A stretch of 64,000 nucleotides of DNA from an uncultured Verrucomicrobiae bacterium (GCA_963731265.1 CAVSUE010000001.1:320001-384000), one strand, 5' to 3'. Numbered from the stretch's first letter, positions 31,706 to 58,697 are shown. The notes: generated from the letters alone by a model not told the origin. Numbers and translations are program-made.

Positions 31706-32615
31706 TGAGTATACCTCCACATACTCCCATCATGGTCGAAGAAGTTCTGGAGTGTTTGAACGGATTGTCCATCGGAATTTTTCTCGATGGGACATTAGGA
31801 GCTGGAGGCCATGCGAGAGCGATCCTCGAAGCGCATCCTGAGATTCAACGCTACATCGGATGCGACAAGGATCCCGAAGCGCTTGCTATCGCTAAAGAGC
31901 GGTTAGCACCATGGGCAGACAAGGTCGAGTTTGTCCAGGGAGATTTTAGTCATTTCGATCAGTACTTAAAAGATAAGAAGATTAATTCGGTCGATGGTTT
32001 TTTTTTGACCTCGGAGTGTCATCTATGCAACTAGACAAAGATTACAAAGGGTTCAGTTTTTCCAAAGAAGGCCCGCTCGATATGCGTATGGACCCGACTG
32101 GCGACCTGACAGCCAAAGAGATCGTCAATACATGGTCAGAAGATGAGCTTGCCCGTATTTTTCGCGACTTAGGGGAAGAGCCGAGGTGGAAAAGAGCTGC
32201 ACAAGCTGTTACTGAAGCGCGCAGAAAAAAACCGATTTTTACGACAACTCAGCTTGCCGAGGTCATATCCGCTGCGCTAAAGACGCCCCTAAGAGGTAAA
32301 TGGCATCCCGCGACCTTGATTTTTCAAGCTCTGCGCATGTGCGTGAACAACGAACTCGATGCGATCGCTCAAGGCGTCGCAAAAGCTGTCCATTTCCTTT
32401 CTAAGGGAGGCAGGATCGGCGTGATGAGTTTTCACAGCTTGGAAGACAGAATAGTTAAAAATATCTTCAAAGAAGCTTCTTTCAAATCGAAAAAAGCGAA
32501 AGAAGGGCCTGTTTTACGCCTTTTGACAAAAAAACCGATCGTCCCCGCTTTTGACGAAGTGAAGAAAAACCCGCGTTCGCGAAGCGCTAAATTACGTTTT
32601 GCTGAAAAATTATGA
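31702..32615 (+). CDS. rsmH: 16S rRNA m4C1402 methyltransferase, split by a frameshift in a T9 run (31998-32006)
   Basis: Frame 1: HTPIMVEE, DGTLGAGGH; frame 2: DLGVSSMQLD, GPLDMRM, SFHSLEDR, NPRSRSAKLR. One extra T (or a -1 shift) joins them. Confidence 0.88.
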
Positions 32616-32724
32616 ACCCAGGCCTTAAGGACTGGGATTAAGTTGGGACCGAGCTTCGGACTCGGGCCCACATTGTTTTTGAAAATACCCGGCCCTTAAG
32701 GGCGGGGTTTCCGCCGGAGGACGG
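32612..32724 (-). mobile_element. Three-hairpin IS200/IS605-type miniature element, copy 1 (rsmH/ftsL junction)
   Basis: ATGAACCCAGGCCTTAAGG...GTTTCCGCCGGAGGACGG followed by ATGAA; near-identical to five other copies (most diverged copy). Confidence 0.85.
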
Positions 32725-33096
32725 ATGAATCTGAAGGCAACCCTTGCACGTATTTTGATCTGTATCATCGGCTGTGGAACGTTCCTTTATTCCTACGTGG
32801 ACAAACAAAATGCGGTGACAAAACGGCGCTTGGATATTCCTGTGCTCGCCAAAGAAATTAAAGATCTGAATGAAGAAAATACCCATTTACGTTATGAGAT
32901 CGAGATCTTTGAAAGCCCCGAGCATCTGATGGAGTTAGCGCGCCATAGCGAATTTAGCCATTTGAAGCATCCCATGCTCAAAGACATCTTGTCGTTGCGC
33001 GAAGGACTAGCTCTACAAGTTGGTTCTCAAAAAGCAGAAGAAGAAAAATCTGCTGCTCGACCGTTCCTCAATTTCCCGATCGGCGCCAAGCAATAA
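32725..33096 (+). CDS. ftsL: FtsL-like cell division protein
   Basis: Single TM + coiled coil + ESPEHL; located between rsmH and ftsI. Confidence 0.7.
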   Translation: MNLKATLARILICIIGCGTFLYSYVDKQNAVTKRRLDIPVLAKEIKDLNEENTHLRYEIEIFESPEHLMELARHSEFSHLKHPMLKDILSLREGLALQVGSQKAEEEKSAARPFLNFPIGAKQ

Positions 33097-33111
33097 TTTC
33101 ACAATCCTAAT

Positions 33112-56969: not shown

Positions 56970-57256
56970 TATACCGAAGTGAACCCAGGCCTTAAGGCCT
57001 GGGATTAAGTTGGGGCCGAGCTTCGTACCCCGCCAACATTGTTTTTGAAAATACCCGGCCCTTAAGGGCCGGGTTTCCGCCGGAGGACGGATGAACACGA
57101 AATTTGGTTTTTTGCTGCGTCGGGTAGGCACTCCATTTGAGCCCGCCTGCATCGCGCAACTTATTCAAGTTGCGCTGCTTCGGCGCCGGCGTTGCCTGGC
57201 ACAAATTCAGGGCGCATCCTTGCCAAATTTCCAAATTTCGAATTCATTTCGGTATA
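56970..57256. repeat. TATAC-ended palindromic element interrupted by miniature element copy 5
   Basis: After removing 56979-57090, the left end TATACCGAAATGAACACGAAATTTGG matches the reverse complement of the right end at 24/26 positions. Confidence 0.85.
56979..57090 (-). mobile_element. Three-hairpin miniature element, copy 5 (between ytgB and ytgC)
   Basis: GTGAACCCAGG...GGAGGACGG followed by ATGAA. Confidence 0.88.
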
Positions 57257-57262
57257 CTTAAG

Positions 57263-58588
57263 ATGTTTACTTCCCCGTGGCACTATTTTGTTGATCCTGT
57301 TCTTCAAGCTCCAACGATCGGAAGCATGTTGATGTGCTTTTCTTCGGCCCTCGTCGGCGTGATCATCTTCTTGCGCAAGCGGTCTTTGCTCGGCGAGGCG
57401 CTGTCCCATGCGGCCTACCCGGGGGTTGTCTTAAGTATTTTGATCATGGCCACTTTCTTCCCATTGGCTTCCGATTTTGCCGCTCTAGGAATTTTGATCG
57501 GGGCTTTTCTCTCTTCTTTGCTGGGACTGTGGGTCATCGAAATCCTCGAAAGGCGCTTTCGGGTCAAAAACGATGCAGCGCTCTGTTTTGTGCTGTCTGT
57601 TTTTTTTGGGTTTGGAGTTTTGGTCGCCAGCCGCATTCAATTTACCCATGCGCTGTGGTATAAAATGGCGCAAATTTTTCTTTACGGTCAAGCCGCGACG
57701 ATGACAGATGTCCATATGTGGATCTATGGCGTGCTCGCCATTTTTTTAGCTTTTGTCCTCGTTGTTCTTTATCGGCAGATCGCCATGTTGATTTTCGATC
57801 GCGATTTTTCTAAAGCGGCGGGCATTGCCGCCCGTTGTATCGACAGCCTGCTTTTAATTTTGCTCGTCCTGGCCATTGTGATCGGCATTCGCAGTGTCGG
57901 CGTTGTCCTGATGGCCGGGATGTTGATCGCTCCTGCAGTCGCAGCCCGCTCTTTAAGCCATCGATTGTGGGCGGTTTTTCTTTTTGCTGCGGCCATTGGG
58001 GCGGTAAGCGGTTTTTTGGGAAATTACCTCTCCGTGGAAATCCCGAGTTGGGGAACCCGCCAAGGCTGGGACTGGAAATTTTCCCTTCCAACAGGACCGA
58101 TGATTTTGCTCTCTGCTTCCGCGATTTGTGTTTTATCTCTTTTGTTTGCTCCGCAAAATGGCCTTGTTAGTCGATTCCTGCGCATTCTTCGTTTCCGACA
58201 GCAGTGCAGAGCGGAAAATTTGATGAAATTTTTATGGCGCTCAGGACCTGATGGCAAAGCATCGCTAAATGAAATTCAACGGTGGCAACCCCTTTCTTTT
58301 TTTCAAATCTGGAGATTGAAACGGCAAGGATGGATTGAAGAAAGCCCAAAGAATGTTCTGCGTTTGACCAAAGACGGTTCTCTTCGAGCAGGCCGTATCG
58401 TCAGGCTACATCGCTTATGGGAAGCCTATCTCGTTTATTTGGGCCAAGGCGTTGAAAAAGTGCATCGAAACGCGGAAGAAATGGAGCACATCATCACTCC
58501 TGAATTAGAAAAAGAACTGTCCGAACTTCTCGGCGACCCTAAAGAAGACCCGCATTCACAGCCGATCCCTCCGAAGGGGTCGATGTGA
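57263..58588 (+). CDS. ytgC: Metal ABC permease fused to a C-terminal DtxR-like repressor (YtgC-YtgR)
   Basis: LLGEALSHAAYPG permease motif; C-terminal RLHRLWEAYL...HRNAEEMEH...DPHSQPIP DtxR/MntR domain. Confidence 0.9.
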   Translation: MFTSPWHYFVDPVLQAPTIGSMLMCFSSALVGVIIFLRKRSLLGEALSHAAYPGVVLSILIMATFFPLASDFAALGILIGAFLSSLLGLWVIEILERRFRVKNDAALCFVLSVFFGFGVLVASRIQFTHALWYKMAQIFLYGQAATMTDVHMWIYGVLAIFLAFVLVVLYRQIAMLIFDRDFSKAAGIAARCIDSLLLILLVLAIVIGIRSVGVVLMAGMLIAPAVAARSLSHRLWAVFLFAAAIGAVSGFLGNYLSVEIPSWGTRQGWDWKFSLPTGPMILLSASAICVLSLLFAPQNGLVSRFLRILRFRQQCRAENLMKFLWRSGPDGKASLNEIQRWQPLSFFQIWRLKRQGWIEESPKNVLRLTKDGSLRAGRIVRLHRLWEAYLVYLGQGVEKVHRNAEEMEHIITPELEKELSELLGDPKEDPHSQPIPPKGSM

Positions 58589-58697
58589 ACCCAGGCCTTA
58601 AGGCCTGGGATTAAGTTGGGGCCGAGCTCCGTACTCGGCCCAACATTGTTTTTGAAAATACCCGGCCCTTAAGGGCCGGGTTTCCGCCGGAGGACGG
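58585..58697 (-). mobile_element. Three-hairpin miniature element, copy 6 (ytgC/ytgD junction)
   Basis: GTGAACCCAGG...GGAGGACGG followed by ATGAA. Confidence 0.88.

Follow-up and report, generated by a model that had tools for sequence, protein, structure and literature searches.

A short three-hairpin repeat of environmental Chlamydiota with features of a non-autonomous IS200/IS605-type element

Introduction

Can a mobile sequence settle directly in front of start codons, inside operons, and leave the reading frames on both sides usable? The question is raised by a stretch of 64,000 nucleotides (referred to here as the window) from an assembly labelled as an uncultured Verrucomicrobiae bacterium (GCA_963731265.1 CAVSUE010000001.1:320001-384000), which contains six copies of an element of 112-114 nt. 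An earlier note, made from this sequence by a model, had listed the copies and proposed that the element is mobilised by a TnpA transposase, inserts at the target TTCAT and rebuilds both the stop codon of the upstream gene and the ribosome-binding site of the downstream one. The analysis of the window and of copies from other genomes leads to a related explanation. It is likely, with a probability of about 0.75, that the repeat is a 113-126 nt non-autonomous, PATE-like element of the insertion sequence (IS) type IS200/IS605, which transposes by the Y1/HUH 'peel-and-paste' route and has TTCAT as its target. This explanation is carried by the anatomy of the element, its target preference, the absence of duplication, its presence at some orthologous sites and absence from others, and the matching left end of an IS605-type relative.

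Layout and gene context of the six copies

Motif matches, a repeat finder connecting the same six loci and an alignment confirmed the copies at the positions listed in the earlier note. The span of a copy is counted from the left pentamer through the last base before the right pentamer.

32612-32724, plus strand: copy 1, rsmH/ftsL junction; TGA 32613-32615 is the rsmH stop and ATGAA 32725-32729 the ftsL start
40015-40126, minus strand: copy 2, FAD oxidoreductase/VTT-TVP38 junction; TGA 40125-40123 is the oxidoreductase stop and ATGAA 40014-40010 the downstream start
41512-41624, minus strand: copy 3, 5' leader of the FAD oxidoreductase gene; ATGAA 41511-41507 is the oxidoreductase start
50726-50839, plus strand: copy 4, intergenic, between convergent genes; ATGAA 50840-50844 opens just 38 codons
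56979-57090, plus strand: copy 5, ytgB-ytgC spacer, with a second repeat family directly behind it; ytgC does not start at ATGAA 57091-57095
58585-58697, plus strand: copy 6, ytgC/ytgD junction; TGA 58586-58588 is the ytgC stop and ATGAA 58698-58702 the ytgD start

Each window copy starts with (A/G)TGAA, ends with GGAGGACGG and is followed by ATGAA. After the initial pentamer come hairpin 1, which is a perfect palindrome of 20 nt, then ATTAA, the 30-nt hairpin 2, a 15-mer rich in A/T, hairpin 3, which is a palindrome of 22 nt, and TTCCGCCGGAGGACGG, with ATGAA next. When the copies were aligned with 20-nt flanks, homology began exactly at TGAA and ended exactly at ATGAA. With up to 3 mismatches allowed, the hairpin-1 motif has seven matches in the window, where 100 shuffles lead one to expect 0.00; the seventh belongs to the TnpB element described below. 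The parts of copy 6 are as follows, the strand bearing TTCAT being taken as the putative active strand.

58590-58609, plus strand: hairpin 1, abutting the end pentamer; right-end subterminal hairpin on the active strand
58615-58644, plus strand: hairpin 2, followed by a T-run
58660-58681, plus strand: hairpin 3, left-end subterminal hairpin on the active strand, 16 nt from the insertion point
58682-58697, plus strand: linker with an outward-facing GGAGG, which ends 4 nt before the target ATG

Gene calls are mechanical open reading frames (ORFs) supported by family scans. ORF coordinates and the scans bear out the claim that the TGA of the element is the stop codon of rsmH, of the FAD oxidoreductase gene and of ytgC. 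The ATG after the element opens ftsL (32725), the VTT/TVP38 gene (40014, minus strand), the oxidoreductase gene (41511, minus strand) and ytgD (58698), and GGAGG ends 4 nt upstream of all four boundary start codons, as the earlier note had read them. The ORF at the ftsL position matches no family; it is called ftsL because of its site between rsmH and ftsI and its 51% identity to a syntenic ORF in locus L052. Copies 4 and 5 do not lie at gene starts and had not been claimed to; the ATG of copy 5 (57091) opens about 56 codons, out of frame with ytgC. Stop/start overlaps reading ATGAC, ATGAT or ATGAG had been described as free of the element, together with one ATGAA overlap, and all of these were verified.

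42166-42170, plus strand: unoccupied ATGAA in the msrB/msrA ATGA overlap

As a separate observation, rsmH is split into two ORFs, 31702-32034 and 32016-32615, with a frameshift at a nine-T run at about 31998-32006. Either rsmH is a pseudogene or the assembly has a homopolymer error here.

Copies in other genomes

A hairpin-3 pattern scan of the GTDB species genomes gave at least 103 loci, 80 of them with 10-kb flanks. A profile made from the six window copies had at least 151 hits in those loci, of which at least 106 were unique and at least 80 full-length, distributed over 11 assemblies. The wider set used below comprises 86 full copies (6 from the window and 80 from the scanned loci), and all counts are lower bounds. 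Full-length copies per assembly are listed here.

CAVOSF01: at least 40
JABDEH01: at least 15
JASHWX01 (Candidatus Rhabdochlamydia): at least 8
MGME01: at least 5
CAJCIW01: at least 3
DASUCX01: at least 3
CAWHZZ01: at least 2
Four more assemblies, including a Simkaniaceae metagenome-assembled genome (MAG): at least 1 each

The window was not among the fetched loci, where only orthologous stretches at 65-74% identity were present. Its genes include one for an NTP/NDP exchange transporter and one for a YtgC permease with a fused DtxR-type repressor, and such gene content marks its source as a member of Chlamydiota. Several copy-bearing assemblies are likewise labelled Verrucomicrobiae or Verrucomicrobia; from the gene content of the window and the homologues of its genes in their loci, we infer that the copy-bearing assemblies are of chlamydia type. 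Matches in unrelated phyla consisted of the hairpin alone. The element is widespread in environmental Chlamydiota.

Two sub-families coexist in CAVOSF01, with linked differences in hairpin 1 (an A-T versus a C-G pair), the hairpin-2 loop and the spacer, which implies at least two source lineages. Two copies, in L070 (9794-10042) and L052 (9980-10240), are interrupted between hairpins 2 and 3, following TTTTTGAA, by an inserted sequence of about 135-155 nt. This sequence also occurs as a dispersed repeat in L019, L008, L024, L051 and L048, and its own hairpin resembles hairpin 3.

Ends and target pentamer

The tabulation of 86 copies gives a left pentamer with G 64/A 19, T 83, G 78, A 82 and A 84 at its successive positions; it reads GTGAA in 60 copies and ATGAA in 14. 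The corresponding counts for the right pentamer are A 85, T 85, G 63 (A 8, C 9, T 6), A 85 and A 75. Positions 1, 2 and 4 are fixed in 85/86 copies each and positions 3 and 5 vary: ATAAA, ATCAA or ATTAA stands at the right end of 23/86 copies, and the fifth base is other than A in 11/86. Flanks had been predicted to be non-random, and they are, with AT(G>C,A,T)AA on the right. The target TTCAT was upheld, with a choice looser than had been stated and amounting to NTNAT across the wider family.

Nine JABDEH01 copies of the same length differ at 2/1044 internal positions compared with 5/45 positions of the right pentamer (Fisher p=1.9e-6), and at 1/45 positions of the left one. This excess of mismatches indicates that the right pentamer is flanking target and not decayed element. 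The left pentamer, usually GTGAA, belongs to the element and does not stem from the target. Of the 33 copies whose right pentamer is a variant, none repeats that variant on the left, which excludes a target-site duplication, and the two 5-nt pentamers are identical in just 7 of the 86 copies. Neither the window alignment nor the wider copy set contained terminal inverted repeats. These results agree with the claim that variable target duplications and terminal inverted repeats are absent, and the unmirrored variants rule out a model with duplication of a TGAA target.

Gene starts and stops beside the element

In 39/86 copies the right boundary coincides with an ATG that opens 70 codons or more, and in 48/86 such an ATG lies within 30 nt, compared with 7/86 in a mirror-image control (p=1e-11). 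Among copies with an ATGAN pentamer, 39/61 open at least 70 codons; the figure for the ATGAA sites of these loci as a whole is 843/3519. ORFs of this minimum length are terminated by the TGA of the element in 26/86 copies, and another 18 are within 30 nt of such a stop. The fixed orientation to the gene follows from the proposed mechanism, in which a TTCAT target on the antisense strand brings the left end, with its GGAGG, up to the ATG. Truncated copies, consisting of hairpin 3, GGAGG and ATG only, were also found at gene starts.

Empty and filled orthologous junctions

Empty orthologous sites had been expected, and six element-free junctions were found in other genomes or, in one case, in the window; four read ATGAA and two ATGAC or ATGAT.

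ytgC/ytgD, empty in L003 (Rhabdochlamydiaceae MAG): ATGAA in an ordinary ATGA overlap; the first residues of YtgD are MNPY here and in the window
rsmH/ftsL, empty in L052: ATGAC in an ATGA overlap
CAJCIW 3332 filled, L076 empty: single ATGAA
CAWHZZ 764851 filled, L008 empty: single ATGAA
CAVOSF 39244 filled, L060 empty: single ATGAA
CAVOSF 457615 filled, ytgA start in the window empty: ATGAT

The ytgB/ytgC junction orthologous to copy 5 is a GTGA overlap in L003. Some sites are occupied in more than one genome. One gene start (MNRYAL...) is filled in both L085 (CAVOSF010000004) and L098 (JASHWX010000185), with flanks 79% identical over 550 nt, and each assembly holds there the element variant typical of its own genome, which suggests re-insertion at a hot site or homogenisation. 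In the window a full copy stands at the start of a VTT/TVP38-family gene; at the same start L050 has half a copy (hairpin 3 and GGAGG). We read both sites as recurrent site use or turnover.

A TnpB element with a similar left end

One IS605-type element was found in the window.

36584-37831, minus strand: TnpB-only IS605-type element separating murE from the next ORF; TTCAT (plus-strand ATGAA 37832-37836) adjoins its left end

The sole ORF of this 1.25-kb element is TnpB (NCBIfam guided_TnpB, 5.9e-23; Pfam PF01385). The ATGAA abutting its left end is the start of the next ORF, and the murE stop (36585-36587) falls within its right end, which on the plus strand is GTAAA; removal of the element would leave an ATGA overlap between murE and the next ORF, so that its ends imitate such an overlap as those of the mini element do. 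The left ends of the TnpB and mini elements have TTCATC in common, followed by a linker that is 4 nt longer in the TnpB element and then by 22/27 identities around the hairpin. The outward sequence of the TnpB element contains no GGAGG, which makes the Shine-Dalgarno motif particular to the mini element. There are 1769 relatives of this TnpB at E<=1e-10, the closest being intact, 369 amino acids long and up to 82% identical. Many relatives are on contigs of 1.2-4 kb, as expected of a repeated TnpB-only IS, and tblastn of the TnpB relic against the scanned loci gave no match.

The gene after the TnpB element shows two frames that overlap, one (37832-38158) beginning like a signal peptide and the other (37902-38732) containing DUF2147. 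The gene may have been disrupted, or an indel error may affect it.

Hairpins, linker and putative expression signals

Sense and antisense transcripts of copy 6 are predicted to fold into three hairpins (-70.6 and -71.7 kcal/mol), far below shuffled sequences (z of -5.3 sense and -7.3 antisense). Ten of the 26 predicted pairs are kept via changes on both sides among 78 distinct copies, in hairpins 1 and 2; in hairpin 1, the pair at alignment columns 9-25 is AU in 43, CG in 27 and GC in 5. The stems of hairpin 2 differ entirely between assemblies through compensatory changes and its loop is kept. Hairpin 3 is invariant because it was the search pattern. The 16-nt GGAGG linker was outside that pattern and is nearly identical across assemblies whose hairpin 2 has fully diverged.

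The left-end linker of IS608 is exposed, and mainly its length matters (PMC3597680). Since the linker of the mini element is kept in sequence, there should be another reason for its conservation, most simply a ribosome-binding site, and we infer that it is conserved as such. In the predicted fold GGAGG is partly inside a weak local stem. Hairpin 2 of copy 6 and its T-run were listed by a terminator consensus scan; the tail is interrupted, and copies sit within operons that include essential genes. A promoter scan of 56500-59000 gave two sites against 2.0 expected, none of them inside the element. In an Rfam 15 scan the only match of the window was one tRNA, and a composite element copy matched no family at the gathering threshold. 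No convincing rule emerged for IS608-style guide-to-cleavage pairing when the 4-5 nt 5' of each hairpin were compared with TTCAT/TTCAC.

Proposed mode of insertion and its weighing

The IS200/IS605-type explanation implies the following order on the active strand: TTCAT, cut, 16-nt linker, left-end hairpin (hairpin 3), A/T-rich spacer, middle hairpin, right-end hairpin (hairpin 1), TTCAC, cut. The element would insert 3' of TTCAT, or more loosely NTNAT, with no duplication of the target, and would be mobilised in trans by a Y1 TnpA. The complement of TTCAT, ATGAA, frequently serves as a Met-Lys/Asn gene start and forms the core of ATGA stop/start overlaps, and for this reason the element would land just upstream of start codons in one orientation to the gene. 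At a former ATGA overlap the right end, reading GTGAA on the sense strand, would restore TGA in the upstream frame and alter only the third base of the last sense codon. In sense orientation the left-end linker has GGAGG, 4 nt upstream of the ATG, which would replace the displaced native ribosome-binding site. It seems that GGAGG, TGA and the hairpins may all be used in expression.

Several findings weigh against this explanation. The TnpA mobilisation proposed in the earlier note stands as far as ends, target and empty sites fit IS200/IS605, but no Y1 TnpA was seen in the window and 1,150,922 unique bases of loci (1.15 Mb) with crude HUH/Tyr regular-expression screens covering only part of each genome. 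From strict to loose, these expressions returned 0, 0 and 14 ORFs, none TnpA-like by eye, and Pfam detected no Y1_Tnp in 22 ORFs beside left-end-only copies or in 12 ORFs with the HUH motif. The IS605-type element of the window is TnpB-only, its tnpB is apparently broken by two frameshifts at about 36850-36900, which may be assembly errors, and its right end is only loosely like that of the mini element. The two subterminal hairpins of the mini element are perfectly palindromic, and at the right end no linker separates the hairpin from the cleavage pentamer; IS608 has a linker of 10 nt at this place (PMC3597680). The strand bearing TTCAT is the G-rich one in 25/36 loci with |GC skew|>0.03 (p=0.03, local skew serving as a proxy), and the overall strand bias is weak (37/60 loci, p=0.09). 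Neither a gene start nor a gene end lies within 30 nt of 25/86 copies, variants in JABDHH01 are devoid of GGAGG, and the locus set was ascertained through hairpin 3, among the matches listed. Many native genes of the window have no Shine-Dalgarno sequence, and a ribosome-binding site may therefore not be strictly needed.

The best of the alternatives, which we consider unlikely, is a REP/REPIN-like repeat that owes its mobility to a domesticated RAYT-type Y1 transposase (TnpA-REP), where hairpins 1 and 3 would form a REP doublet and hairpin 2 its linker. Hairpins 1 and 3 are indeed similar G+C-rich palindromes about 50 nt apart that pair together in the minimum-energy fold of copy 1, copies are numerous and mostly extragenic, and the lack of an IS-borne TnpA in the sequence screened fits as well. 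The sharp constant ends with a specific flanking pentamer are IS200/IS605-like, though, and the TnpB-carrying IS605-type relative has a matching left end and the same TTCAT flank. The element also has no GTAG or CGTC head of the REP superfamilies (PMC3733652), and no RAYT gene was seen in the window and the available loci, which represent part of each genome.

Somewhat less probable still is an immobile, vertically inherited regulatory RNA module of the host (an intercistronic stabiliser, an attenuator or a translation cassette), whose spread would be ancient and whose conservation would reflect host function. The covarying stems, the GGAGG linker near-identical in spite of a diverged middle hairpin, the truncated copies at gene starts and the site filled in two assemblies with 79% identical flanks could be explained in this way. 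It is hard to reconcile with near-identical copies at unrelated sites (2/1044 mismatches in JABDEH01, a single mismatch among eight JASHWX01 copies) and with orthologous sites filled in one genome and empty in another; the occurrence of each genome's own variant at the shared site fits re-insertion or homogenisation better than simple descent. A DDE-transposase miniature inverted-repeat transposable element duplicating a TGAA or ATGAA target, suggested by the xTGAA ... ATGAA bracket of every window copy with its resemblance to a 4-5 bp direct repeat, is very improbable in view of the 0/33 mirrored variants, the 7/86 identical pentamers, the missing terminal inverted repeats and the single pentamer at empty sites.

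Possible accommodation to operons

Beyond the IS200/IS605-type origin, it is tentatively proposed that the element evolved to be 'operon-safe', one end rebuilding the upstream stop and the other supplying a strong outward ribosome-binding site, and that hosts came to depend on it. A selfish single-strand transposon would have colonised start codons and ATGA overlaps in gene-dense intracellular genomes. The solo remnants of hairpin 3 and GGAGG at gene starts and the refilling of the same starts across lineages point towards such dependence. If the proposal is true, the element sets translation initiation and uncouples neighbouring cistrons at dozens of loci per genome, perhaps also attenuating or stabilising operon transcripts. 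With a start codon as target and a replacement stop and ribosome-binding site, it would be a clear case of an operon-harmless transposon. This would explain the density of about one repeat per 4-11 kb in small gene-dense chlamydial genomes, including the rsmH/ftsL site. Junctions with and without the element make a natural experiment on translational coupling versus independent initiation, and the conserved TTCAT flank predicts the target-adjacent motif of the associated TnpB family.

Other repeats in the window

A second dispersed repeat family, about 120-160 nt long and with its own hairpin, occupies the following sites.

43520-43640: beside a tRNA gene
52600-52800: upstream of the nucleotide transporter gene
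57100-57260: directly after copy 5, in the ytgB-ytgC spacer

Copies of 77-86% identity occur in several of the element-bearing assemblies. A motif of about 40 nt at 57218-57260, just upstream of the probable ytgC start, has dozens of copies of about 85% identity in the CAVOSF01 loci and is a candidate for either a promoter cassette or another mini element. A 217-nt direct repeat of 74% identity (62283-62499 and 63450-63666) sits in the adjacent minus-strand ORFs 62019-63161 and 63174-63800; neither ORF matches a family, and the two are probably tandem paralogues.

Comparison with known systems

The accessible part of the Waddlia genome paper contained nothing specific to the element. No description of it was found in the searchable literature under motif, chlamydia and repeat topics, about 1.7 million PMC articles and subscription journals being outside the coverage. 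Protein-less IS200/IS605 derivatives are known already, the PATEs in Haloquadratum reportedly being among them (PMC3119063); a start-codon-targeting form with a stop and a ribosome-binding site was not found described.

Small repeats located within transcription units and compatible with flanking frames or signals include MIRUs, Rickettsia palindromic elements and the Correia elements of Neisseria. MIRUs overlap stop and start codons of neighbouring operon genes and are tandem minisatellite-like units; Correia elements have inverted repeats and a TA duplication. All three differ from the element in sequence and in presumed mobility mechanism, and to our knowledge none has been reported to target the start codon itself.

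REP, BIME and REPIN sequences are likewise short G+C-rich palindromes of high copy number, mostly between genes (PMC3337134, PMC3333891, PMC8266576). They are thought to be moved by a Y1/HUH enzyme and can act on mRNA stability and termination (same sources). Unlike them, the element is a three-hairpin unit whose ends and flanking target are defined and which keeps one orientation to the downstream gene; it has no GTAG/CGTC head.

IS200/IS605 elements insert with their left end on the 3' side of a particular motif of four or five nucleotides, and they lack inverted repeats and have structure-rich ends (PMC5027513). Insertion 3' of such a motif, the absence of terminal inverted repeats and hairpin-rich ends are shared by the mini element with IS608 and ISDra2, and its weak strand bias would fit the tendency of their active strand to lie on the lagging-strand template (PMC5027513, PMC3597680). 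It differs from both in having neither tnpA nor tnpB and in its perfectly palindromic hairpins. Its left-end linker is 16 nt compared with 19 nt in IS608, and its right-end hairpin adjoins the cleavage pentamer in place of the 10-nt right-end linker of IS608 (PMC3597680).

A close parallel is found in the IS605 family of Geobacillus, where TTCAT and TTTAT are the transposon-adjacent motifs of ISGst5 and ISGst2, where protein-less, PATE-like derivatives exist and where about 50 copies are presumed to move in trans (PMC10055086). Like the ISGst PATEs of Geobacillus stearothermophilus, the element is non-coding, has subterminal hairpins at both ends and a 5-nt motif at the left end, makes no duplication, exists in many copies presumed to be trans-mobilised and is accompanied by TnpB elements whose ends appear to be related (PMC10055086). 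Unlike PATEs, it has Chlamydiota as its host clade, no omega-RNA-like part was recognised in it, and it is only 113 nt long. It also differs from them in the outward GGAGG of its left-end linker and in a right end that reads as an opposite-strand stop codon; it is on account of these two features that 39/86 copies stand exactly at gene starts and 26/86 supply the upstream stop.

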